In this document: one piece after another, positions 2,048 through 25,410 of the stretch
Layout of the letters: the number at the start of each line of letters is the position of its first letter
How positions within the stretch are numbered: the first letter of the stretch is position 1
Source: Caldimicrobium thiodismutans
GTDB lineage: Bacteria > Desulfobacterota > Thermodesulfobacteria > Thermodesulfobacteriales > Thermodesulfobacteriaceae
Direction of reading: 5' to 3'
Length of the DNA stretch: 32,000 bases
NCBI RefSeq assembly: GCF_001548275.1
Contig: NZ_AP014945.1
Span: 480,001-512,000 of the forward strand
Made by a program: the position numbers and the translations under genes
The notes under the pieces: model-generated
Database searches by the model: none
The model's input: the letters and a program-made list of their open reading frames with translations, nothing else
What the model was told of the DNA's origin: nothing

Positions 2048-2367
2048 TTACAAGATAGTGTATGCGTCCGTATCTTTTTAAGACTCAAATCTGCCCCTAC
2101 ATCCAATCCAAGTCAATCATTTTTTGAATAATTTTTATCGAATTTTCATTTCATAGTAAGGGCAAACCTATGTGTTTACCATCTTTTAGCAAACCTATGT
2201 CTTTGCCAGTTGTGTGTTCGTTTAAACTATTAGGCAGATACGCAAGGATTGGGTAGACACTATAGATTTGCCCCTTCTTTAACCTCTCACATCTTACCAC
2301 CCTTCCTTTTTCTTGTAAGGATAAGGTGCTGAACTTATGCAGATCTGAACTTATGCAGTCTTGCAAA
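2048..2367 (-). repeat. Mosaic intergenic repeat, copy A (element reads on the minus strand toward the EamA start)
   Basis: Hand alignment of rc(2294..2322) with 31550..31578 gives 27/29 identical. rc(2348..2367) vs 31502..31521 gives 19/20. rc(2156..2216) aligns with 10251..10304. rc(2058..2086) matches 24/28 plus a 1-nt indel to 31683..31710. It contains an internal direct repeat ctgaacttatgcag at 2329..2342 and 2345..2358. Confidence 0.7.
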
Positions 2368-2379
2368 TAAACTAAATAG

Positions 2380-2400
2380 ATCCGGGCCAGAGGCCCGGTC
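2380..2400 (-). terminator. Putative rho-independent terminator of the 2408..3184 gene
   Basis: GC-rich hairpin with arms ccgggcc (2382..2388) and ggcccgg (2392..2398) and a 3-nt loop, about 10 nt after the stop. On the minus strand it is followed by the T-rich tract tctatttagtttattt. Confidence 0.6.
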
Positions 2401-2407
2401 AAATTCC

Positions 2408-3184
2408 TTATTTTTTCATTTTGGGTGCTTCAGGAATGTTTGATCCGTGACATTCTCCACAATTTTGCTGAGCTGTAATACCAAAGGTTCCAGCTGGGGA
2501 CCATTTTACCCCTTCATGAAATTTTCCATCCTTCCAGGCATTAAGCATCATAGTCAATTGATAGGCAACGCTTGCTGCAACTCTTGCACATCTATCCTTT
2601 CTTTCAGGACTTGCCAGTGCAAACCCCGAGGCCTTCATCCACTTACCAACTGAGATATGACAAAGAGGGGAACCACTCATCGTTTGCACAATGCGTTCTT
2701 TGTTTGCTTTAGGATTTTTAGGTTTGTATGTGGGTAAATCGGTATTACTATACCAGTCTAAAAGATTAGTAGAGATAATGTGTCCTACCTCGGAACCACT
2801 GATTCTTGGACCGCAGATACAGTTGGCAACAACGGCTGCGCCGTTAATTGAGCCACAAAGAGTTCCCCAGCCAGCAAGCCCTCCTTCCTGAATAATAAAG
2901 GCGTCTACTGGAAAGGAAGCATAAGGCTCGCCTATTTTTTCAGCTAATTGAGAAAAAATAGAACTAATTACTGCAGCTCCACAAAAGACCCTATACCATT
3001 CATTGTAAGCAATTTCAGCTGTTTTCTCAGGATCCAGTTTTTCATAAGGCCAGGGCCATTTTTGAGTTTTCATCTTAGCTTCTGCAGAAGTAACCAGATC
3101 AATTTGAAAGGCTTTAGAAAGCAAAAGCCCGGCACTAAAAAGTCCAGACCCAATTAAAAAATCCCTTCTGCTCACATCTCCCAT
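2408..3184 (-). CDS. Tat-exported C_GCAxxG_C_C-type redox protein with C-terminal CxxCH haem motif (split-Soret cytochrome c-like)
   Basis: 258 aa with a twin-arginine signal SRRDFLIGSG. Cysteine blocks are VFCGAAV, LCGSINGAAVVANCICG, SPLCHISVG and DRCARV, with C-terminal NCGECH. A strong SD (aaaggaggtg) precedes the ATG. Confidence 0.8.
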   Translation of the reverse strand: MGDVSRRDFLIGSGLFSAGLLLSKAFQIDLVTSAEAKMKTQKWPWPYEKLDPEKTAEIAYNEWYRVFCGAAVISSIFSQLAEKIGEPYASFPVDAFIIQEGGLAGWGTLCGSINGAAVVANCICGPRISGSEVGHIISTNLLDWYSNTDLPTYKPKNPKANKERIVQTMSGSPLCHISVGKWMKASGFALASPERKDRCARVAASVAYQLTMMLNAWKDGKFHEGVKWSPAGTFGITAQQNCGECHGSNIPEAPKMKK

Positions 3185-4309: not shown

Positions 4310-5863
4310 ATGTTAGGGAGAAGAGATTTTTTAAAACTTTCCTTAGCAAGTTTTATAACCTTAGTTGCTCCTTCAAGGGAAATTTTTGCAAGGGTTAATT
4401 TTTCAGAAGGTTCAGCTACGAAAGGGATTATTTTTTTAGTTGGTGATGGATGGCCTCTTGGAGTAATGAAAGTAATGACAGAATTTATGACTATGAAGTT
4501 TAAAGAAGAAAGCAATCTTTCTATCTTACTTAGAAACTTAAATACCAGAGTTTTACTTCAGAATACCTCTTCATTATCTTCTGTTGTAACAGATTCTGCT
4601 CCTGCTTCAGTTGCTTGGGCTACTGGTTCAAAGACAGTCAATAGATCACTTTCAAGTTTACCTGATGGAAGAAAGCTAACCACAATTTTTGAACTTGCAA
4701 GGCAAAAGGGAATTGCATATGGCTTTGTAACAACAACGAGGGTAACACATGCAACCCCTGCAGCATGGTATAGTCACAATCCAAACAGGGATGATGAGGA
4801 CAATATTGCCCTTGATCTTTTAAATTCAAATGTAATGGTAGCTATGGGTGGAGGAGATAGACATTTTAATGGAACAATTAGAAAAGATAGAAGAGATCTA
4901 TATGGGATGTTCAGAGAAAAAGGATTTAGAGTTGTTAGAACCAGAGAAGAGCTTGTAGCCAGTCTTAATGATGAAAACCCAATTCTTGGTATTTTTGCTT
5001 CCTCACATATGAGTTACTTTGTAGATAGAGTAAATGATAAAAGATTAAGGGAAAGCGAACCATCTCTTCCAGAGATGACTGCAGTTGCACTTCAAAAATT
5101 ATCTAAAAATAAGAAGGGTTTTATTTTACAGATTGAGGCTGGAAGAATTGATCATGCCTGTCATAGCAATGATATGTATGGAGCAATGATGGATTGTTAT
5201 GAATTAGATAAAACTTTAGCTGTTATTTTGGAGTTTATGGAAAAAAATCCCAATGTGCTTTTAATTGTAACATCAGATCATGGAAATTCAGGTTATGGAA
5301 TTAATGGAACAGGGCCTGAATATAATGATTCAACCGAGGCTTTGTTGAGTTATAACAATAAAGCCTCTTTTGAATATATGAAAAGATTAATGAGAGGTCA
5401 GGATGCAAAAAACATAAGAGATATTTTTGAAAATTATACTGGACAGAAAATTTCATTAGAAGAGGCAGAGGAAATCTATAGAAAATTAAATGAAAAGAAA
5501 ACAGTAGTGATTAATGATATTTGGTATGAACCAGATTATACAATGGGAAGAATATTAGCAAAAAGTGTTTATAAATATGAAAATGAGAATCTCTTTAAAC
5601 CAGCTATAGAAAGGAGAGGAAATGTTGGTTTTACATCTACAAATCATACCGCTGAGGATCAGATTGTAATAATTTATGGAGAACAAATTCCTCAAATGAG
5701 AGTAAAAAGTCATATTGATAATACAGAACTTTTCCAAATTATATGTAATTATTTAAGAATTTATCATATAAATCCAAAGATGAAAAAGGAAGAAGCTATA
5801 GCTTTCATAAAATCTATTACAAAAGAAGAATGGAAAAAACATTTAGAGTTACATATTGCCTAA
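4310..5863 (+). CDS. Tat-exported alkaline phosphatase family protein (PhoA-type)
   Basis: 517 aa with twin-arginine signal GRRDFLKLS. The nucleophile block is VVTDSAPASVAWATGSKT. Metal-ligand blocks are AGRIDHACHSND and TSDHGNSG. Confidence 0.88.
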   Translation: MLGRRDFLKLSLASFITLVAPSREIFARVNFSEGSATKGIIFLVGDGWPLGVMKVMTEFMTMKFKEESNLSILLRNLNTRVLLQNTSSLSSVVTDSAPASVAWATGSKTVNRSLSSLPDGRKLTTIFELARQKGIAYGFVTTTRVTHATPAAWYSHNPNRDDEDNIALDLLNSNVMVAMGGGDRHFNGTIRKDRRDLYGMFREKGFRVVRTREELVASLNDENPILGIFASSHMSYFVDRVNDKRLRESEPSLPEMTAVALQKLSKNKKGFILQIEAGRIDHACHSNDMYGAMMDCYELDKTLAVILEFMEKNPNVLLIVTSDHGNSGYGINGTGPEYNDSTEALLSYNNKASFEYMKRLMRGQDAKNIRDIFENYTGQKISLEEAEEIYRKLNEKKTVVINDIWYEPDYTMGRILAKSVYKYENENLFKPAIERRGNVGFTSTNHTAEDQIVIIYGEQIPQMRVKSHIDNTELFQIICNYLRIYHINPKMKKEEAIAFIKSITKEEWKKHLELHIA

Positions 5864-5905
5864 TATTTATAGGTTCTCTGATTTAATATAAAAAAACTAT
5901 TATAA

Positions 5906-5944
5906 AAGCCTTCTTGGTTATTTAAAAAGAAACCAGGGGGGCTT
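5906..5944 (+). terminator. Possible terminator hairpin after the phosphatase gene
   Basis: aagcc-tt-cttggtt [loop atttaaaaaga] aaccagg-ggg-gctt. The stem is imperfect with one G:U pair, and the downstream T tract (tttatttgaatttt) is weak. Confidence 0.35.
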
Positions 5945-6395
5945 AAAGTTTATTTGAATTTTAATTAAAATATAAACTAACTTTCAGAATTATCTTATTA
6001 TCTCAACTTCCTTTTCTTTTGGTGATTTTGACAGTATTTGTGTTTTTTTTTGTATATAAGAATATTCCAAAGGTTATATAAAAATTTTTTTGCAGAAAAG
6101 GTAATGGCTTTATGAAAAAAGTTTTGAGTTTTGTGGAGAGATTTTCTAAATCCTGGGAGGAAGTCGGGAGTGCTTTTAAATAGTTGAAGAATAAAGAGGA
6201 TATGAAGGGGAGGGCAATGGAGGGGAAAGGAAGGACTTTTGGGGAGATAAAGGTTGATACTGAGATTGGGATAGGAGCAATTCTTTGGATTATTGGTTTT
6301 AGAGAAGTTTTAGGTTTAAGCAGGCTTAAGCTTTTTAATAAGGGATTTTAATAAGGACTAATAAGGATATGCGGGTCTTTACTTTTTTAAAAAAT

Positions 6396-16073: not shown

Positions 16074-16631
16074 ATGGTAGAAGGAAAAAAGAGAGGGCGA
16101 AAACCTAAGGAGAGCCTCGATAGAATTAAGAGAGAACCTCTTGAGATTGTAGATGAAAATTGTGAGCCCCTTGGAGTGCTCTCAAGAGGTGAGGTTCATG
16201 CTCGGGGACTTTCTCATAAAGCTGTGCATATCTTTATATTTAATTCAAAGGGAGAGATATATCTTCAGAAAAGGAACTTAGATAGAGAGGAGCATCCAGG
16301 TCTCTGGAGCTCTTCAGCCTCAGGACATTTAAGCCCTGGGGAGCCTTTACTCCTTGCTGCTCAGAGAGAACTAAAAGAAGAGCTCAAACTTAAAGTTAAG
16401 CTTGATGAGGCCTTTAAGGTTAAACCTTGTGCTGAAACCAACTGGGAGTGTACAACCCTTTTTGTAGGAAATACCGATAAACTTCCTAAACCTAATCCCT
16501 CTGAGATTTCAGAGGGAAAATTTTTCTCAATCTCCGAACTTGAACGACTTATTGCAGAAAGCCCTGAGATATTTAGCCCTACTTTTATTTATCTCTGGAG
16601 GATTTATAAAGAATATTTAGCTCAGGAATAA
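16074..16631 (+). CDS. NUDIX hydrolase
   Basis: The Nudix box is GHLSPGEPLLLAAQRELKEELKL (G-x5-E-x7-REUxEExGU pattern). The fold is similar to IDI/YfcD-like members. Confidence 0.85.
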   Translation: MVEGKKRGRKPKESLDRIKREPLEIVDENCEPLGVLSRGEVHARGLSHKAVHIFIFNSKGEIYLQKRNLDREEHPGLWSSSASGHLSPGEPLLLAAQRELKEELKLKVKLDEAFKVKPCAETNWECTTLFVGNTDKLPKPNPSEISEGKFFSISELERLIAESPEIFSPTFIYLWRIYKEYLAQE

Positions 16632-17265
16632 GTTCAGAAAGCCCTTCCTTTTCAAGAAGAGTAATTAAAAATGTAAAATCGCCATTTTTTATATATTCGG
16701 GAATCGGGGCTAAGGCAAAGGTCTGAAGTTTTCTTTCTTTTTCCTCAGGGGATAAGCGACTTTCCAGGATTTTTTCTCTAATTTTACGCATAAGTATAAG
16801 ATAAATTGTATATTCTTCTCCAAAAAAGGATTCCAGTTTTTCCCGAATTCTTCTTGCCACAGCCGGGCTTGCTCCACCTGTAGAAATGGCAATTAGAAGA
16901 TCACCTCTTTGAACTTTTGAGGGCACAATGAAGGAACAAAGCTCAGGTTTATCCACCACATTGCAGGGGATTTTTCTTGCTTCAGCTTCTTGGAAAACCT
17001 TTTTTTGCACCTCTGGTGAATTGGTTGCAGAGATAACAAGAAAGGCCTCTTTAAGGTCTCCCTCTTGATAGGGTCTTCCTTCCCATTGAAGATTATAATC
17101 CCTAATGATTTTCTTAAGTGCTTCAGTGACCTCAGGCGAAATAATCTTAACCTTTGCACCGGCTTTAACTAAGGAAAGGACCTTTCTTTCTGCAACCTTC
17201 CCCCCCCCTATAACTACACATAACCTGTTTTTAAGGTTTAAAAAGATAGGATAATACTCAGTCAA
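16585..17265 (-). CDS. Precorrin-2 dehydrogenase / sirohydrochlorin ferrochelatase (CysG N-terminal / SirC-Met8 type)
   Basis: 226 aa. The N-terminus YPIFLNLKNRLCVVIGGGKVAERKV (Rossmann GGGxVA) is typical of the siroheme synthase N-domain. TTG start with SD gaggggtggggag; it overlaps the ligase gene end by 8 nt. Confidence 0.85.
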   Translation of the reverse strand: MTEYYPIFLNLKNRLCVVIGGGKVAERKVLSLVKAGAKVKIISPEVTEALKKIIRDYNLQWEGRPYQEGDLKEAFLVISATNSPEVQKKVFQEAEARKIPCNVVDKPELCSFIVPSKVQRGDLLIAISTGGASPAVARRIREKLESFFGEEYTIYLILMRKIREKILESRLSPEEKERKLQTFALAPIPEYIKNGDFTFLITLLEKEGLSELIPELNILYKSSRDK

Positions 17266-18409
17266 CTTCTCCCCACCCCTCTAATTTTTGTCCCCAGAAC
17301 TGGGTTGCCCTTGGATAGATTTTTTTAAATTCTACAAGGAAATAGCCATTTTCCCAGCTCTGTTTTATTATCTCAATATTTACTCTGGCCTGTTTAAAAT
17401 GAGCAAGAAGAGCATGATAGTTTTCTAAGTTTTTAAACCTTACCCTGAAAACTTCGTCAAAGACCTTTTTTTCTTTTATTGATTTAAGAGCCTCCTCAAA
17501 GAGGTTAGTTCCCAGAGTTTTATAGACTTCATCCTTGAATTCTTCAAATTCATAAAGATTTAGCAGGAGCCTTATCAATCTCAAACTAATGAAGTGAGGA
17601 TCTACCTCTCCAAGATAAGGAAAAACTACCTTTAGATCAGTCAGATTTGAATAGGGTGTTACATATTTTACCCTTGTGCCCTTTTCCTCAGGTTTAAAAA
17701 CAAGACCTTCTCTACCTTCTCTGTGATATCTCCGAATAAGGTCTTTGATTTTTTCATAATCTTTTTCTGGATGAAAGGGGCCTGAGATCTCAGGATGATT
17801 CAGCTTGAATTTCTGCAAAAGGTTTATTTTTCTTGAGCCTGGTAAAAACTCTCCTGTCCCCTTTTGGGCAAAGTCAAAGACAAAGAAATGGATGTCCCTT
17901 TTAAGATAAGGGGGCCATTCACTTACAAAGGGATTTTCTGGACCAGCTACCTCACAACATATTACAAAATCAGGATATTTGTTCAGGAAATTTGGAATAG
18001 TTGGTAAAAAGTCTTCCCAGCGATCTGTAGCAAAGGGGCAGACATATCCCCTGCGTGTAAAGGCTAAGATGTCCTTTCCTATCTTAACCAGCCTAACATT
18101 ATAGCCTTCAATCTTTTCTTCTGCATAAAAGGGATAGCTTAAGTATCTTATGAGACCAGTTTTGAGAACATAAATTCTCGGGATGGAAGGATAACCCCTA
18201 ACAAAAAGAGACTCATTGAAAAAGGTGCCTACTGGATAAGCTTTAAAATCTTTATTTATTCTGAAAAAGGAAAGATCTTTCCAGGTGGAAAAGATTACTT
18301 TGCCAGCATCATAAGCCTTTTCCCAGTCTTCCCAGTTATACTTTTTCAAATAGGGATTTTTTTCCCAGCAGGCCTTGAGATAGATTTTAATTTCTTCATG
18401 TTCTCTCAA
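17258..18409 (-). CDS. ATP-dependent RNA ligase, Rnl3 (Pab1020/MthRnl) family
   Basis: 383 aa with nucleotidyltransferase motifs: I EEKIEGYNVR (lysine nucleophile), Ia FTRRGYVCPFAT, III ICCEVAGPENPF, IV HFFVFDF, V REGLVFKP...RVKYVTP. The N-terminal extension and C-terminal dimerisation-like domain resemble archaeal Rnl3. TTG start with SD aaggagagg. Confidence 0.85.
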   Translation of the reverse strand: MREHEEIKIYLKACWEKNPYLKKYNWEDWEKAYDAGKVIFSTWKDLSFFRINKDFKAYPVGTFFNESLFVRGYPSIPRIYVLKTGLIRYLSYPFYAEEKIEGYNVRLVKIGKDILAFTRRGYVCPFATDRWEDFLPTIPNFLNKYPDFVICCEVAGPENPFVSEWPPYLKRDIHFFVFDFAQKGTGEFLPGSRKINLLQKFKLNHPEISGPFHPEKDYEKIKDLIRRYHREGREGLVFKPEEKGTRVKYVTPYSNLTDLKVVFPYLGEVDPHFISLRLIRLLLNLYEFEEFKDEVYKTLGTNLFEEALKSIKEKKVFDEVFRVRFKNLENYHALLAHFKQARVNIEIIKQSWENGYFLVEFKKIYPRATQFWGQKLEGWGEVD

Positions 18410-19445
18410 GAAATACCTCTCCTTTCTCTTTCAACTTTCCTTCAATTCTAATCTTTATTTTATCCAGAAATTGTGGAATTAACCAGCCTTGAGTTAAAAG
18501 ATGCATGGTTATACAAGAAACAGTGTAAGAAAATTTACTGGAGGGGCTTTCAAGAAGGGCCAGGCTTGCTGGTAAAAGAAGCTGGTCTCCTAAATGTTCT
18601 TCGAACTGGGTTTTAGTTTCCAGAAACTTTAAAAAGGCAAGGGCAGAGGTCTTGCCCACTTCTTCAGCAGGAAATCCCTTTTTACCAAGGGTGGAAAAGC
18701 CTGCTCTTTTCTCCCCGTCCGTTGCTGTTATGAAAAGCATAGTGCCTGGAGAGAGGCTTTTTAATGTCTCATATTTGACCTTTGACTCTAAATTTTCCTT
18801 TGAAAGAATAGTTAGAGCAGATTTTGCCTGTCTTTCAAGAATATGAGAAGGAAGATTATCAGTAATAAAACTTAGGATTTCTATTTCATCTGGGGTAAAG
18901 CCATAAGTTAGAAAGGGAAGCTTGAGTTTTTCTTTTTTTTCTATTTGTGAAAAGACAATTCCCTCACCTTGTGGGTAAAAACCTGGTCTTTCAAGCTTAA
19001 GATTCCCTCTGAATCCAAAATTTTTTATCACTGGAAGCCAGACCTTTTCAAGATAATGATAGGTAGGGGAGTGGGGCACATGGGTTCCACCTTTAAGGTA
19101 AAGGGTAGCACCCTCGGAAAAGGAAAGGGGATAAAAGAGAGTTTGAAGAAGGAGGGAGGTTGAGCCAGCAGTCCCAATGTCAAAGGTATAGGTCTCCTTT
19201 TGAGGTTTTTTTTGTGGGATAAAGATAAGTTCCTGGGAATGCAAAGTATCTCCCTCTGTTATAGCAGAGGATATAATTTTAGAGGCCTTTACACAGGCCA
19301 GATGCTGAGGTTGAAGGCCTGGTTTTTGTCTTCCAGCTCGGATTTTAATTATTTTAAAGGGTTTCTGAAGAATTAGGGAGAGGGAAAGGGCTGTGCGAAG
19401 AATCTGGCCTCCACCTTCTCCATAAGATCCATCAATGATGAGCAA
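18396..19445 (-). CDS. rtcA: RNA 3'-terminal phosphate cyclase
   Basis: The N-terminus IDGSYGEGGGQILRTALSLSLIL is a near-canonical RtcA signature. Length is 349 aa and the late histidine region is present (ITMHLLTQ). TTG start 3 nt after the fabG stop. Confidence 0.92.
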   Translation of the reverse strand: MLIIDGSYGEGGGQILRTALSLSLILQKPFKIIKIRAGRQKPGLQPQHLACVKASKIISSAITEGDTLHSQELIFIPQKKPQKETYTFDIGTAGSTSLLLQTLFYPLSFSEGATLYLKGGTHVPHSPTYHYLEKVWLPVIKNFGFRGNLKLERPGFYPQGEGIVFSQIEKKEKLKLPFLTYGFTPDEIEILSFITDNLPSHILERQAKSALTILSKENLESKVKYETLKSLSPGTMLFITATDGEKRAGFSTLGKKGFPAEEVGKTSALAFLKFLETKTQFEEHLGDQLLLPASLALLESPSSKFSYTVSCITMHLLTQGWLIPQFLDKIKIRIEGKLKEKGEVFLERT

Positions 19446-19448
19446 GGA

Positions 19449-20192
19449 TTAGCCCCGGAAAAGGCCTCCATTTATGTGAAAAACTGTGCCAGTTATATAA
19501 CTTGCCTGGTCACTTGCTAAAAAAACAGTTAAATAAGCAACCTCCTCAGGAAGCCCAGCTCTTTTAAGGGGAATCTCCTGTAAAAAGGCCTCTTTTACCT
19601 TTTCTGGCAATTTTTCTGTCATATCTGTCTCTATATATCCCGGAGCAATAGCATTAACTGTGATATTTCTTCCAGCAACTTCTAAGGATAGAGCCTTGGT
19701 AAAGCCAATTAGCCCTGCTTTAGCAGTTGCATAATTGACCTGTCCGGGATTTCCAGTAAAGGCAACTACTGAAGAGATGTTAATTATTCTTCCCCATCTG
19801 GTTTTAAGCATCATAGGTAAGACCGCCTGAGTAACATAAAAGGCAGAAAAAAGATTGGTCTTAAGCACAGCGTCCCAGTCTTCTTCTTTCATTCGAATAA
19901 AAAGGGTATCCCTTGTAATACCAGCGTTGTTAACCAAAATATGAATGTTACCGAGGGTTTCCTCAATTTCTTTAAGGGCCTTTTTTACTTCCTCTGGCTT
20001 GGATACATCAAAGCGAGATAGATGGGCTTTTCCTCCTATGGCCTCAATAGAGTCTTTTACCTCTTTGGCCTTATCTTCTGAACCAAGATAGTTTATTACT
20101 ACCTCAGCACCAGCCCGAGCAAGCTCTTTGGCTATTGCCCTTCCGATTCCCCTTGAAGCACCTGTAACAAGTGCAATCTTTCCTTGAAGCAT
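19449..20192 (-). CDS. fabG: 3-oxoacyl-[ACP] reductase (SDR)
   Basis: The cofactor motif is TGASRGIG, followed by NNAG and the catalytic S...YxxxK (NYATAKAG). 247 aa, with the FabG-like C-terminus GTVFHINGGLF. Confidence 0.88.
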   Translation of the reverse strand: MLQGKIALVTGASRGIGRAIAKELARAGAEVVINYLGSEDKAKEVKDSIEAIGGKAHLSRFDVSKPEEVKKALKEIEETLGNIHILVNNAGITRDTLFIRMKEEDWDAVLKTNLFSAFYVTQAVLPMMLKTRWGRIINISSVVAFTGNPGQVNYATAKAGLIGFTKALSLEVAGRNITVNAIAPGYIETDMTEKLPEKVKEAFLQEIPLKRAGLPEEVAYLTVFLASDQASYITGTVFHINGGLFRG

Positions 20193-20203: not shown

Positions 20204-20668
20204 CTACAGAAGGTTGAACTTTCTTAAAATTTCCGCAAACCTTTGATCCTCTTTAGCAAACTCTCTTAAGGCCTCAAGAACCCTCTTCAAGGTCCCATCT
20301 TTCTCAAGGGCTTCAAGAGCCTCCCTTCTTGCCTCTCTCAACATTGTCCTCCTATCCCATAAGGCAAGACCAATAACTGCTACAACTAAGGCTGTAAATA
20401 TCCCAGAAAGAATCCATAGAAAATTTCTAAGCTCTTCAAACCTTTTGTCAATTTGCTCAAACCTTTTGTCAATCTGTTCAAACCTTTTGTCAATCTGTTC
20501 AAACCTTTTGTCAAATTCCGTAAGTTTTGCCTCTACCCTGATAAGTCTATCCCTATCCTCAAGGGTAAAGGGCACCTCCTTTGCAGAATAGGATACCCCA
20601 TATAAAGTCATCTCAAAAAATATTAAAAAAAGAAATCCAAAGAAAACTTCTTTAAATTTGCTCTGCAT
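20204..20668 (-). CDS. Membrane protein with four tandem heptads (DKRFEQI), function unknown
   Basis: 154 aa. An N-terminal hydrophobic segment is followed by the coiled-coil FDKRFEQIDKRFEQIDKRFEQIDKRFEEL, then a TM (FLWILSGIFTALVVAVIGLALW) and a helical tail. SD aggagga. It is the first gene of the minus-strand operon. Confidence 0.75.
   Translation of the reverse strand: MQSKFKEVFFGFLFLIFFEMTLYGVSYSAKEVPFTLEDRDRLIRVEAKLTEFDKRFEQIDKRFEQIDKRFEQIDKRFEELRNFLWILSGIFTALVVAVIGLALWDRRTMLREARREALEALEKDGTLKRVLEALREFAKEDQRFAEILRKFNLL
20445..20528 (-). repeat. 21-bp tandem repeat x4, in frame within the 20204..20668 CDS
   Basis: The units are ttcaaaccttttgtcaatttg, ctcaaaccttttgtcaatctg, ttcaaaccttttgtcaatctg and ttcaaaccttttgtcaaattc, arranged head to tail. 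Confidence 0.95.
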
Positions 20669-20701: not shown

Positions 20702-20729
20702 ATTTTACTGAATTCCTCTGGAATATCAA
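20702..20729 (-). promoter_or_regulatory. Sigma70-like promoter candidate for the membrane-protein/fabG/rtcA/rnl operon
   Basis: On the minus strand: TTGATA (20729..20724), 16-nt spacer, TAAAAT (20707..20702), about 34 nt upstream of the ATG at 20668. Confidence 0.35.
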
Positions 20730-20840: not shown

Positions 20841-22388
20841 TTAAATTCTTTCCCAGTTATAGGAAACTATGTTTTTGGTATCTTTACTAAAATCAAAGCC
20901 AAGGAGATAGAGCTCTTTGAACTTCCCTCTATATTTTTCGTGATACCCCTTTTCTTTAAGCTGTTCTATTGCCTTAGGGCTTTCTCCTTCCATCTCAACC
21001 ACCTTAAACTCAACTATAAAACATCTCTCCTCAAAAATTATTGTTAAATCAATCCTTCCAAGGCTTGTATAATCCTCAAGGATTACCTCAAAGCCTGCCC
21101 CTTCAAGAAAACTATAAACCACACTGGCATAATACCCTTCATAACCTGCTATTTCATTACTTCTATACCACTCATAGGGAATCCCTAAAAAAAGGGTCTT
21201 TAAAACCTCTCCAAAGGCGGAAACCCTTCCCTCCCTCAATGCCCTGGTTAATTTAAGGGTAAGCCTTGCACTCTCAGGCCCCTTCCTTGTCAAATAATCC
21301 ACTATGTAATTATTCAGGGAAACTTTAACCTCTTTATTGGGATAACTAAGATAATAGAGGTATCCCGATGGGATTTCTTCAACACCTTTTATGGTGAGAT
21401 AGCCTGTTTGAAAGAGAAGGTTTTCTGGTTCAATAAAGTCCACATCAAAGCTTCCAAGGAGGCGCTCTGAAGCCATAAGCTCTGAAAGCTGGGGGATATA
21501 AAATTTCTTTTCCACAAGGAGTTTAATAAGAAAACTGGGAGTTCCTGTCTCAAACCAGTAGGGGTGAAAGGTTCTTTTCTTAAGATAGAGAAGCACATCA
21601 AAGGGATTGTAAACGGGTTCACCAAGCCAGGAATAACCATTATACCAGCATTTTATAAGCTTTAAGTCTTTATCTTCTAATTCTTCTCTGAAGACCTCTT
21701 CAAGCTCTTTCTGAGTGTATCCACAGATTTCTGCAAATCTCTTATCAAGGGTAATGTCATTTAACTGATTTAGCCCTGAAAAAAGAGAGACCTTTGAAAA
21801 TTTGGAAACCCCTGTTAGGAAAACAAATTTTAAATAAGCATCAAGGGGCTTAAGAACACTATAAAAGTTCTTGAGGACATCTCTTATTGCCTTTGCGGTC
21901 TCTCTATCCTCAATGCAATCAAGAATGGGTTTGTCATATTCATCAACAAGAACTACCACTTTAGATGCATATTTTTGAGAAAGTTTTAAGATTAGTTCCC
22001 TGAAACAGGCATGATAATCATCTTTCCATTTACAGGTAATATCATAAAGATTTTGATGTTCCTCAAGTTGCTGAAGAATCCATTTCTCAAGGGCTTCTAT
22101 ACCTTTAACCTCTCCTCCCCCAAAATCAATATGAATAACAGGATACCTGACACTCCAGTCCCAGTTCTTTTCAAGATAGAGCCCCTGGAAAAGCTCCTTT
22201 CTTCCAAGAAAGGCCTGCTTTAAGGTGTCCACGAAAAGGGATTTTCCAAATCTCCTTGGGCGAGAGAGAAAATAGTATTTTCCTTCGGAGACAAGTTTGG
22301 CTACAAAATGAGTTTTATCCACATAATAATAAGGCTCTGAGCGAATCTCCACAAAGCTTGAAATTCCAATGGGAAGTTTTTTCTCCAT
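20841..22388 (-). CDS. AAA-ATPase-like domain protein with C-terminal PD-(D/E)XK nuclease domain (PF09820/PF08011-type architecture)
   Basis: The N-terminus KLPIGISSFVEIRSEPYYYVDKTHFVAKL...YFLSRPRRFGKSLFVDTLKQAF is the hallmark of the predicted AAA-ATPase family. Walker-B-like VVVLVDEYDKP is present. The C-terminus has GRIDLTI...FIVEFKV (D...ExK). Confidence 0.88.
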   Translation of the reverse strand: MEKKLPIGISSFVEIRSEPYYYVDKTHFVAKLVSEGKYYFLSRPRRFGKSLFVDTLKQAFLGRKELFQGLYLEKNWDWSVRYPVIHIDFGGGEVKGIEALEKWILQQLEEHQNLYDITCKWKDDYHACFRELILKLSQKYASKVVVLVDEYDKPILDCIEDRETAKAIRDVLKNFYSVLKPLDAYLKFVFLTGVSKFSKVSLFSGLNQLNDITLDKRFAEICGYTQKELEEVFREELEDKDLKLIKCWYNGYSWLGEPVYNPFDVLLYLKKRTFHPYWFETGTPSFLIKLLVEKKFYIPQLSELMASERLLGSFDVDFIEPENLLFQTGYLTIKGVEEIPSGYLYYLSYPNKEVKVSLNNYIVDYLTRKGPESARLTLKLTRALREGRVSAFGEVLKTLFLGIPYEWYRSNEIAGYEGYYASVVYSFLEGAGFEVILEDYTSLGRIDLTIIFEERCFIVEFKVVEMEGESPKAIEQLKEKGYHEKYRGKFKELYLLGFDFSKDTKNIVSYNWERI

Positions 22389-23159: not shown

Positions 23160-23616
23160 AAAGGACTGGTTTCACCTTTTTTTTGCAACAGGCGCCTTTG
23201 TAGGATTCATTCCTCCCTTTCCAGGCACCCTGGGGGCTTTGGAGGGGATTTTCCTCTATCAAATAACTCTGGAAATGGCCTTATATGTAAAACTTCTTTT
23301 AAGTATTTTTTTTATTTTGATTGGCCTTTTATCCTCCAGCTATGTATCCGTCCTTTTAAATAACAAAGATCCTGATGAAGTTGTTATTGATGAGGTTGCT
23401 GGAGCATATATTGCCTGCCTGGGTAAGACCACTATATTAGAACTTGTCCTTGTATTTATTTTATTTAGAATTATAGATATAACAAAGCCCTTTCCTTTAA
23501 AGAGACTTGAGAGTCTCAGGGGAGGATGGGGGATTATGCTTGATGATATCCTTGCGGGTATTATGACCAATCTCATTGTAGGTCTTATAATTATATTTTC
23601 TAAGGTGAGTTTATGA
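23119..23616 (+). CDS. pgpA: Phosphatidylglycerophosphatase A
   Basis: PgpA blocks ATGAFVGFIPPFPGTLGAL, VVIDEVAG, DITKPFPL and GWGIMLDDILAG are present. The start is uncertain (TTG 23110, ATG 23119 or 23122) and overlaps the upstream gene end. Confidence 0.85.
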   Translation: MMSLRRNLKKPLFKKDWFHLFFATGAFVGFIPPFPGTLGALEGIFLYQITLEMALYVKLLLSIFFILIGLLSSSYVSVLLNNKDPDEVVIDEVAGAYIACLGKTTILELVLVFILFRIIDITKPFPLKRLESLRGGWGIMLDDILAGIMTNLIVGLIIIFSKVSL

Positions 23617-24887
23617 GGGGGGCTCTTCTTTTTATAGGTGATGAGCTTATTTCAGGGAGGATTTTAAACACTAATGCAGAGTTTGCAGGAAAAATCCTTT
23701 CCGCTACAGGGCTTAAACTCACAGAAATCGTAACCGTTCCTGATGAGGAACCTCAAATTATTAAGACTTTCAAGCGCCTTTTAGAGGAATATGACTTTGT
23801 TATAACCTCAGGTGGCCTTGGGCCAACAGAGGATGATCTAACCACTGAGGCAATTACTAAGGCCCTAAATCTTGAACTCAAAGAGAGTAAAACCCTTCTT
23901 TCTGCCATTCTATCCTCAGGTGAATATAAAGGAACTTTGGGTATGGCCAAAAAGATGTCTATGCTTCCAGAGGGTGCTGAAATCCTCTCTGAGGACTCAA
24001 AGATGCTTGGTTTCTATTTGCACTATCAAGGGAAAAAACTTTTCTTTCTCCCAGGCGTTCCTGAACAATTTAGATTTCTTTTAAAAGATCGTGTTATTCC
24101 CCTTCTCTGTGAGGTAAGAGGTGGTGAAAGAGGTATTTGTAAAGAAGAAAGGATCCTTAAAAATTTTATTTTCTTTGATCTTAATGAGACGGATCTCAAT
24201 CAATTTATTTTGAGTCTTAAAGGCAAAGAAGAGATAAAAATTGGTTATTATCCTCTTATTCCTGAGGTTAGATTAGTTCTTCTTGGGGATAAAGAAAAGG
24301 TTGAGGAGGTTGGAAATCAGATTAAGGAGAGGTTTAAAGTTAATTTGATAAGTGAAGAAGACGAATCTTTACCTGTGATTACTGGAAAAATTTTAATGGA
24401 GAGAAGGCTTACTTTAGCAACTGCTGAATCCTGCACAGGGGGGTATCTGGCAAGTTTAATCACATCTATTTCAGGATCTTCAGCCTATTTTGAAAGAGGT
24501 TTTGTGACCTATAGTGCCCAGAGTAAAATAGAGCTTTTAGGTGTGAAAGAGGAGACCCTTAGAGAAAAAGGGATTTACAGCTTTGAAACAGCTCTTGAGA
24601 TGGCTTACGGGGCAAGATTAATAGCGAAAACAGATTTTGCCTTATCTACAACTGGCATTGCTGGTCCAACAGGAGGAACTGCAGAAATCCCTGTAGGTAC
24701 AGTCTTTATCGGTCTTTCCGTCCCCCACAGGGTCTTTGCCCTGCACTTTCGTTTTGAGGGAGATAGACAGACTATCCAAAGGATGGCCAGTTACACAGCC
24801 CTTGATCTTTTAAGGAGGTATCTCCTGTATGGTGAGAGCCTTTTTAGCTATAGATTTGCCCTCGGATTTAAAGAAAGAACTTTTTAA
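23613..24887 (+). CDS. cinA: CinA: MoCF-binding domain plus nicotinamide-nucleotide amidohydrolase (PncC) domain
   Basis: The N-terminal domain has FIGDELISGRILNTNA...ITSGGLGPTEDDLT. The C-terminal domain has LATAESCTGGYLAS...STTGIAGPTGG. Confidence 0.9.
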   Translation: MRGALLFIGDELISGRILNTNAEFAGKILSATGLKLTEIVTVPDEEPQIIKTFKRLLEEYDFVITSGGLGPTEDDLTTEAITKALNLELKESKTLLSAILSSGEYKGTLGMAKKMSMLPEGAEILSEDSKMLGFYLHYQGKKLFFLPGVPEQFRFLLKDRVIPLLCEVRGGERGICKEERILKNFIFFDLNETDLNQFILSLKGKEEIKIGYYPLIPEVRLVLLGDKEKVEEVGNQIKERFKVNLISEEDESLPVITGKILMERRLTLATAESCTGGYLASLITSISGSSAYFERGFVTYSAQSKIELLGVKEETLREKGIYSFETALEMAYGARLIAKTDFALSTTGIAGPTGGTAEIPVGTVFIGLSVPHRVFALHFRFEGDRQTIQRMASYTALDLLRRYLLYGESLFSYRFALGFKERTF

Positions 24888-25410
24888 ATTAAGTAAGCTC
24901 ACTTTACCTGAGGGACTTAAGGTGAAATGGGTAGAGGAGGCGAATTTTCATCTTACCCTTCACTTTTTTGGTAACCTACCTGAAACTCTGATTGAAAAAA
25001 TATCCAAAGGAGGTCAAAGGATTTTTGAGCCTATAAGTCCCTTTACTTTAAATATTGATGAGGTTGGGATTTTCCCAGTAGGTGGCAACCCAAGGGTTCT
25101 GTGGATAGGTCTTAAGGATCAGTCTAATATTTTAAAGGAAATAGATAAAAAATTAAGAGAACTTCTTAAAAAGTTAAAGCTTGAAAAGAAGGAAAAATTT
25201 CATCCCCATATTACCCTCTTCCGAATTAAAGAATTACACGATATCAGGGCCTTTCAAGATTATTTTAAGAGATTACAGGAGGAGACCCAAAAGATAAAGG
25301 GCTTTTCCTTCCCGGTTAAGGAAATTGTTTTTTTTAAGAGTGAACTGAAACCACAGGGTCCTGTTTATACGCCTTTAAGGGTTTTTCCTTTGAGGGGAGG
25401 TGCCTTATGA
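24829..25410 (+). CDS. thpR: RNA 2',3'-cyclic phosphodiesterase (2H family, LigT/ThpR)
   Basis: Two HxT motifs are present (FHLTLHFFG and HPHITLFR), the N-terminus is RAFLAIDLP, and the length is 193 aa. Confidence 0.9.
   Translation: MVRAFLAIDLPSDLKKELFKLSKLTLPEGLKVKWVEEANFHLTLHFFGNLPETLIEKISKGGQRIFEPISPFTLNIDEVGIFPVGGNPRVLWIGLKDQSNILKEIDKKLRELLKKLKLEKKEKFHPHITLFRIKELHDIRAFQDYFKRLQEETQKIKGFSFPVKEIVFFKSELKPQGPVYTPLRVFPLRGGAL

Follow-up and report, generated by a model that had tools for sequence, protein, structure and literature searches.

A conserved overlapping rtcA-rnl3 gene pair in Thermodesulfobacteria joins the gene for a predicted RNA 3'-terminal phosphate cyclase to that for a predicted Rnl3-family RNA ligase

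In a stretch of 32,000 nucleotides (nt) from Caldimicrobium thiodismutans (contig NZ_AP014945.1, positions 480,001 to 512,000; hereafter the window, whose numbering is used for all coordinates unless another locus is named), the minus strand carries two overlapping genes whose predicted products act on RNA ends. The first, rtcA (18396..19445), encodes an RNA 3'-terminal phosphate cyclase of 349 amino acids (aa), and the second, rnl3 (17258..18409), encodes an Rnl3-family ATP-dependent RNA ligase of 383 aa; both start with TTG. The last 14 nt of rtcA (18396..18409) are also the first 14 nt of rnl3, and a Shine-Dalgarno-like GGAGAGG was found on the minus strand inside the 3' end of rtcA (18416..18422), 6 nt ahead of the rnl3 TTG. 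When the junctions of the window and of 27 related loci were compared, a GGAG-type motif was present 6-9 nt ahead of the ligase start in most of them. The motif also codes for the conserved G-E-V at the C-terminus of RtcA, and its conservation therefore has two possible causes.

The product of rtcA scored 322.2 bits against the TIGR03399 model (cutoff 250.05), with both the RTC and RTC_insert domains of Pfam matched, and only 38.8 bits against TIGR03400, the model of the Rcl1 subfamily, which is far under the cutoff of 227.95. Its closest solved structure was the RtcA of P. horikoshii (4O89, E value 3e-61), and the E. coli enzyme was more distant (E value 2e-44, 34% identity). Alignments to these two proteins placed H315, within TMHLLTQ, against the histidine of E. 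coli SCHLLTN; this residue, encoded on the minus strand at 18501..18503, is predicted to form the RtcA-AMP intermediate. In the numbering of the literature, H315 aligned with His309 of the E. coli enzyme, and E10, R17, R36, R39, Q47, and H48 aligned with E. coli E14, R21, R40, R43, Q51, and H52. The list of essential RtcA residues reportedly stems from mutagenesis by the Shuman laboratory. In addition, the motifs EGGGQILR and RAGRxKPGLxxQH were kept in the window protein. On these similarities, the gene encodes a bona fide class I RtcA with intact catalytic residues, and cyclase activity is predicted by homology. In a metagenome-assembled genome (MAG) whose ligase is 99% identical to that of the window (GCA_017880035.1, locus L086), the public rtcA call spans positions 2166..3014 of that locus and gives only 282 aa. 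The full 349-aa open reading frame (ORF) is nonetheless intact there, with 98.6% identity, the short call reflecting that the TTG start was not used; a truncated rtcA in this MAG was thus rejected as an artefact of start-codon choice.

The rnl3 product gave 296.5 bits against TIGR01209 (cutoff 136.9), and Pfam matches were obtained for RNA_ligase (E value 1.6e-22) and for Lig_C, the 'Pab1020 C-terminal region' (E value 2.3e-35). The first two are the profiles by which an earlier note on this DNA, made from the sequence alone, had proposed to check the ligase, and they place the ORF in Rnl3; the note's assignment of the upstream ORF to RtcA stood as well, and the motifs of both proteins are intact. 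The full-length solved relatives of the ligase are the Aquifex protein 3QWU (E value 1.8e-71) and Palaeococcus PpaRnl (8UCE, E value 4.9e-67), followed by Pab1020 (2VUG, E value 7e-61) and MthRnl (5D1O, E value 1.8e-32). The lysine of the KxxG motif is K99, within EEKIEGYNVR; it is encoded at 18113..18115 on the minus strand and is predicted to form the ligase-AMP intermediate. An alignment of 15 diverse family members showed that K99, G102, E153, F176, D179, E234, G235, K239, and K248 are invariant, and that the nucleotidyltransferase motifs I (KxxG), III, IIIa, IV, and V are all intact. Judged by sequence, the gene thus encodes a bona fide Rnl3 ligase of the Pab1020/MthRnl type with intact catalytic residues; homology alone suggests that it may form a homodimer and circularize single-stranded RNA in an ATP-dependent manner. 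The nearest ligase homologues all came from Caldimicrobium, Thermodesulfobacterium, and related genera, and neither protein had an RtcA-Rnl3 fusion among its top 120 homologues. The earlier note had called the ligase 'archaeal-type'; its family assignment is correct, and Rnl3 is not restricted to archaea, being common also among bacteria that are thermophilic or halophilic. HARP, the partner published for this family, had been missed.

To place the pair in a wider context, a ligase-profile scan over one genome per GTDB species yielded 80 loci, and each was searched with the window proteins. In 43 species-level loci (L006-L048) the ligase belonged to a Thermodesulfobacteria clade, with 45-83% identity, and these were taken as the class set. 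In 37 of the 43, rtcA was directly upstream of rnl3 on the same strand. In one more (L018), the two genes are split by a single ORF for a 511-aa membrane protein, and in another (L041) the upstream DNA is too short to judge linkage; the last four are weighed below. The pair was retained down to 45% identity in the ligase and about 42-48% in RtcA. A 14-nt overlap like that of the window is possible by start codon in 22 of the 37 linked loci, the rest ranging from about -56 to +64 nt. Together with the GGAGAGG ahead of the TTG, this makes the translational coupling claimed in the earlier note plausible, and we consider coupling from rtcA to rnl3 probable on the sequence of the junction; we infer that the two genes are also co-transcribed.

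Clustering of the flanking ORFs, named by Pfam, revealed three flank architectures. The Caldimicrobium type has fabG, rtcA, rnl3, and sirC, followed by convergent nudix and lon genes; the Thermodesulfobacterium type has a divergent MiaB-like gene and a creatininase-like gene ahead of rtcA, rnl3, and sirC; and the Thermodesulfatator/Thermosulfurimonas type has two ABC ATPase genes, rtcA, and rnl3, and then either a MiaB-like gene or a convergent permease gene. A fabG gene upstream of rtcA was found only in Caldimicrobium-type loci, and sirC was a neighbor only within Thermodesulfobacteriaceae. Both flanks have been replaced at least three times, and the adjacency of rtcA and rnl3 is the sole one in the region that survives class-wide. 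In a neighbor-joining tree of the ligase, the RtcA-linked sequences formed one clade, and the unlinked ones were nested inside its Thermodesulfatator branch, indicating that the linkage was lost secondarily. Since the pair is conserved across the class while its flanks vary, the data support a real, lineage-specific, and selected physical linkage of rtcA and rnl3. The adjacency survey that the earlier note had suggested thus found the pair conserved across Thermodesulfobacteria, a class of thermophilic sulfur bacteria, well beyond this genome. Two loci of the set deserve separate mention. The ORF inserted in L018, a locus of the Thermodesulfobacterium type, lies at 4415..5950 of that locus, on the same strand and with tight junctions, and encodes a multi-pass, glycosyltransferase-like protein. 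L041 (JAMOVR010000164.1) is labelled as a Candidatus Heimdallarchaeota MAG, and its ligase falls in the Thermodesulfatator branch with 47% identity to that of the window; this is probably a contaminating contig in the bin, and not an archaeal gene.

The other 37 loci, from Aquificota, Nitrospirota, Methylococcales, Acidobacteria, unclassified 'Deltaproteobacteria', and Thermococcus, gave a different picture. None of the 37 had rtcA adjacent to rnl3, and in 26 a gene for HARP, a protein-only RNase P matched by PIN_5, was directly downstream of and convergent with the ligase gene. The same arrangement was found in four of five further ligase contexts from outside the class (P0103, P0069, P0120, and P0100), and in the fifth (P0076, L003) neither HARP nor rtcA was present within 8 kilobases (kb). 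HARP (PF08745, PIN_5) was found neither in the window nor in any Thermodesulfobacteria locus. These observations agree with the report of Seshadri & Gopalan (mBio 2025, PMC12153264), in which Rnl3 was the function co-occurring most strongly with HARP and was co-localized with it in 80% of the bacterial cases. Table S1 of that paper lists Caldimicrobium, Thermodesulfatator, and Thermosulfurimonas genomes as having both HARP and the ligase with 'co-localised: No', and the entry for Caldimicrobium thiodismutans TF1 itself reads HARP 1, ligase YES, co-localised No. Its supplement gives the RtcA insert domain (PF05189) as one of the next four most enriched Pfams of HARP-positive archaea, and it is thereby among the five functions that, after HARP itself, are most enriched there, Rnl3 being another; this hints, as an independent sign, at a three-way link among RtcA, Rnl3, and HARP. 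The Pfam entry for HARP is given as PF09745 in the main text of the paper and as PF08745 (PIN_5) in its supplement, the latter agreeing with the domain matches obtained here; the former is probably a misprint.

Outside the class, the RtcA homologues nearest to that of the window, with 42-44% identity, were stand-alone genes adjoining neither RtcB nor Rnl3. The earlier note had presented the ligase as the partner of RtcA 'instead of rtcB', and this wording is overstated, for the rtcA-rtcB linkage is itself the exception. Two Aquificota loci (L051 and L063) have the order rtcA, gyrA, purQ, and rnl3, followed by a convergent HARP gene, with rtcA 3.2 kb upstream of the ligase gene. They were set aside as a bridging case: the intervening gyrA and purQ are housekeeping genes, and the proximity is therefore probably coincidental. 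In L051 (6964..8328 of that locus) and in six other Aquificota loci (L065, L070, L078, L080, L082, and L083), a gene for a response regulator of the NtrC type, containing a sigma54-activator domain, was found directly beyond HARP; it is possibly a regulator of the HARP-Rnl3 pair and is not mentioned in PMC12153264. In Methylocaldum sp. GT1BB (NZ_CP194902.1, L068), the 5.3-Mb replicon with the ligase-HARP pair is titled 'plasmid unnamed', and it is probably a mislabelled chromosome.

Around the pair, the window holds a run of five co-oriented minus-strand ORFs. It begins with a 154-aa membrane protein (20204..20668), followed after an 11-nt gap by a fabG-type reductase gene (19449..20192; TIGR01830, 353 bits), whose stop is separated from the rtcA start by a 3-nt gap; after rnl3, a sirC/cysG-N-like gene (16585..17265; TIGR01470, 171 bits) follows with an 8-nt overlap. 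The coordinates and junctions, including the 14-nt overlap of rtcA and rnl3, are as the earlier note had given them. Its description of the run as an 'odd operon' was right as to gene order and tight junctions, and the idea of a five-gene module was rejected: the heptad membrane protein, like the AAA/PD-(D/E)XK gene upstream, is a singleton, and fabG and sirC are lineage-specific neighbors lying outside the conserved core. Ahead of the first gene, a weak sigma70-like promoter candidate on the minus strand, TTGATA-16-TAAAAT (20702..20729), matched 10 of 12 positions, the total of promoter-like sigma70 sites in the region not being above the shuffled expectation. The 154-aa protein is predicted to have a hydrophobic segment at its N-terminus and a membrane segment at its C-terminus, and its heptad FEQIDKR is encoded by a 21-nt tandem repeat (20435..20514; 3.8 copies, 94% match). 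No counterpart was found here in related species, and of the loci retrieved only L086, the 99%-identical MAG, has one. Just upstream of the run, also on the minus strand, 20841..22388 encodes a protein of 515 aa in which AAA-ATPase_like (PF09820) and PD-(D/E)XK nuclease (PDDEXK_9) domains were recognized. This gene is missing from the position in related species, which suggests an insertion specific to the lineage; in L086, a PDDEXK_9 gene is present at this place too.

Next, the genes of the well-known RtcA context were sought. No RtcB domain was present in any ORF of the window, which covers 32 kb of the 1.81-Mb genome, and tblastn with E. coli RtcB, run over the window and about 950 kb of related loci, gave no match. 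No RtcR-type gene (CARF plus sigma54 activator) was found in the window either, the matches to 'RtcR' being rejected as generic AAA+ domains of NtrC-type activators. The sigma54 consensus TGGCAC-N5-TTGCW matched 11 times against 9.3 expected, which is chance level, and none of the matches lies ahead of the operon in the correct orientation. The domain scans, the tblastn search, and the promoter counts therefore bear out the statement of the earlier note that rtcB, rtcR, and a sigma54 promoter are missing from the window. When the window was scanned with Rfam for RNAs that might serve as a substrate, one tRNA-Arg was returned and nothing else. On the plus strand, thpR (24829..25410; TIGR02258, 145 bits against a cutoff of 65.7) is part of a pgpA-cinA-thpR-psiE cluster, 5.4 kb from the pair. 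As listed, the cinA-like ORF (23613..24887) and the thpR ORF overlap by 59 nt (24829..24887); either this is an unusually long overlap or the true thpR start is further downstream.

The reading that we prefer, with modest confidence, is that rtcA and rnl3 form a co-translated module for handling RNA ends, the enzymology being predicted by homology and the cooperation proposed from the conserved linkage. The pair would be a two-gene core, co-transcribed and probably translationally coupled, that arose once at the base of Thermodesulfobacteria and there takes the place of the HARP-Rnl3 linkage of most other Rnl3-carrying lineages. Both enzymes would consume ATP and attach AMP to a phosphate at an RNA terminus, which is the 3' end for RtcA and the 5' end for Rnl3. 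Through His315-AMP, RtcA would activate the 3'-phosphate for attack by the neighboring 2'-OH, giving a 2',3'-cyclic phosphate, and would more slowly adenylylate 5'-phosphates; through Lys99-AMP, Rnl3 would activate the 5'-phosphate for attack by a 3'-OH, mostly of the same molecule, giving circles. Made together at a fixed ratio, the two enzymes may act on one pool of processed or broken RNAs. In such a scheme, Rnl3 would first seal or circularize RNAs with 5'-phosphate and 3'-OH ends. RtcA would then convert the 3'-phosphate (and 2'-phosphate) ends, which Rnl3 cannot join and would wastefully adenylylate, to cyclic ends. Lastly these ends, inert to Rnl3, would go to ThpR, yielding 3'-OH/2'-phosphate ends usable by a classic ligase, or to RtcB, if present. 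Published work on related enzymes is consistent with several of these steps: MthRnl circularizes RNA and makes cyclic phosphate from 3'-phosphate ends, is incapable of ligating cyclic ends, and removes a 3'-terminal A, leaving a cyclic end (PMC5599603), and ThpR opens cyclic ends to 3'-OH/2'-phosphate, which, according to its authors, would suit a classic ligase if the organism has one (PMC4201822).

Several points weigh against this co-translated module. The main product expected of RtcA, a cyclic phosphate, is not a substrate of Rnl3 as the related enzymes are known; since it blocks the ligase, rtcA and rnl3 would not constitute a simple two-step pathway, and no obvious linear pathway connects them. 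Pfam annotation of the window and of the annotated related loci revealed no polynucleotide kinase/phosphatase and no Tpt1. A role for thpR as third component was rejected: it lies on the other strand and belongs to a different operon, and only close Caldimicrobium relatives still have it near the pair, the window, L022, and L031 being the sole loci with a thpR gene less than 6 kb away. The earlier note had identified and placed thpR correctly, and it is the suggestion that the gene belongs with the pair that failed. In four of the 43 class loci (L032, L034, L037, and L040), rtcA is not within the available flank and the ligase is retained. Moreover, unrelated genes adjoin tightly at many places in this compact genome, as fabG and rtcA or rnl3 and sirC do, and the overlap by itself therefore proves little.

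A bolder form of the proposal, which we consider unlikely, is that in Thermodesulfobacteria RtcA took over from HARP the role of dedicated Rnl3 partner and that the two enzymes form a physical or kinetic complex with a reaction that neither carries out alone. A candidate for such a reaction is RtcA-assisted circularization or sealing of bacterial RNAs, either by hand-off of 5'-adenylylated RNA (AppRNA) or by way of cyclic ends opened by ThpR. If this were true, it would be the first dedicated bacterial pathway of RNA circularization or repair built on a classic ligase, and RtcA would gain a physiological role independent of RtcB.

The alternative that survives best is inherited synteny with no interplay, in which two independent RNA housekeeping enzymes are adjacent in small, gene-dense genomes and have not yet been separated. 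The equally tight junctions of the plainly unrelated fabG and sirC in the same run fit this explanation, as do the restriction of the linkage to one class, the four members that lost it yet kept the ligase, and the known chemistries of RtcA and Rnl3, which are not directly connected. Against it, no other adjacency outlived the repeated replacement of both flanks, the overlap and the geometry of the ribosome-binding site were maintained, and RtcA is statistically enriched in archaeal genomes with HARP and Rnl3. We consider inherited synteny rather improbable.

We are more doubtful about a second alternative, in which the pair caps RNA ends and does not join them. RtcA, by turning 3'-phosphate or 2'-phosphate ends into cyclic ones, and Rnl3 would together protect RNA termini from exonucleases and tailing at high temperature; the part given to Rnl3, trimming of a 3'-terminal A to a cyclic end and adenylylation of the 5'-phosphate to AppRNA, is equally doubtful. 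The removal of 3'-A and the cyclization of 3'-phosphates by MthRnl are in line with this idea, and its authors suggested App-RNA>p products (PMC5599603); PpaRnl, in addition, mostly adenylylates and ligates weakly, and a protective cap is one published scenario for the adenylylation of 5'-phosphates by RtcA (PMC3854526). However, circular RNAs are lost in vivo when the archaeal Rnl3 is lost, and two enzymes whose capping activities overlap would in part duplicate each other. The last alternative, an AppRNA hand-off in which RtcA is the 5'-adenylyltransferase (step 2) and Rnl3 provides only phosphodiester formation (step 3), is very improbable: the window ligase retains K99, its motif I lysine, and all adenylylation motifs, and so needs no external adenylylase, and 5'-adenylylation by RtcA is slower than 3'-phosphate cyclization, even though Rnl3 enzymes can join pre-adenylylated donors, the motif I lysine mutant K97A of MthRnl being the variant used to join pre-adenylylated adapters. 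The idea has a published precedent, for RtcA adenylylates 5'-phosphate ends and the Shuman group has repeated the earlier proposal of Chakravarty & Shuman that AppRNA made by RtcA could be sealed 'by a separate repair enzyme' (PMC3854526).

What seems to be new here is the class-wide rtcA-rnl3 pairing, an alternative to HARP as the neighbor of Rnl3, and not a new protein family or an unusual sequence feature. A full-text literature search, outside which Burroughs & Aravind 2016 (NAR 44:8525) lay, found no description of the pair, and PMC12153264 describes no rtcA-rnl3 operon, reporting only the enrichment of the RtcA insert domain in archaea at the level of genomes. The conserved overlapping pair offers a tractable system of two proteins, from an organism that is in culture and whose genome is complete, and a clue to the roles of RtcA and of bacterial Rnl3. 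It could anchor published ideas, namely the sealing of RtcA-made AppRNA by a separate ligase and the healing of ends by ThpR for a classic ligase. It also refines the 2025 picture of HARP, as in one bacterial class the physical neighbor of the ligase is RtcA, and RtcA, Rnl3, and HARP may form one functional network in extremophiles. The thermostable RtcA and Rnl3 may, in addition, serve as reagents.

Compared with known systems, the pair resembles the E. coli rtcBA/RtcR/sigma54 operon in that RtcA, a canonical class I cyclase in the window, adjoins a co-oriented RNA ligase gene. The partner, however, is from an unrelated ligase family that is ATP-dependent and joins 5'-phosphate to 3'-OH ends, whereas RtcB is GTP-dependent and joins 3'-phosphate or cyclic ends to 5'-OH. 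In the window, rtcA also comes first, no RtcR, CARF domain, or sigma54 promoter is present, and the pair lies among housekeeping genes and not in a stress-induced operon. The ligase family (PF18330/TIGR01209) is that of HARP-Rnl3 (PMC12153264), and the hosts are extremophiles of the same sort; in Thermodesulfobacteria, in contrast, the ligase gene is without a nearby HARP, and its neighbor is RtcA, co-directional and overlapping instead of convergent. The window ligase is homologous to the archaeal Rnl3 enzymes (Pab1020, MthRnl, TkoRnl, and PpaRnl), known for the circularization of C/D box small RNAs (sRNAs), and has all the catalytic motifs and the Pab1020-type C-terminal domain; unlike it, those of the three Thermococcus loci examined have no adjacent RtcA. 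Bacteria are not known to have C/D box sRNAs. Finally, as in the heal-and-seal systems (T4 Pnkp-Rnl1, bacterial Pnkp-Hen1, and fungal/plant Trl1), an enzyme modifying RNA ends is encoded with an ATP-dependent ligase. No kinase or phosphatase is linked to the window pair, in contrast to those systems, and thpR is 5.4 kb off on the other strand; moreover, healing in those systems removes or opens the cyclic phosphate, and the 5'-OH is phosphorylated, whereas RtcA does the opposite and makes cyclic ends.

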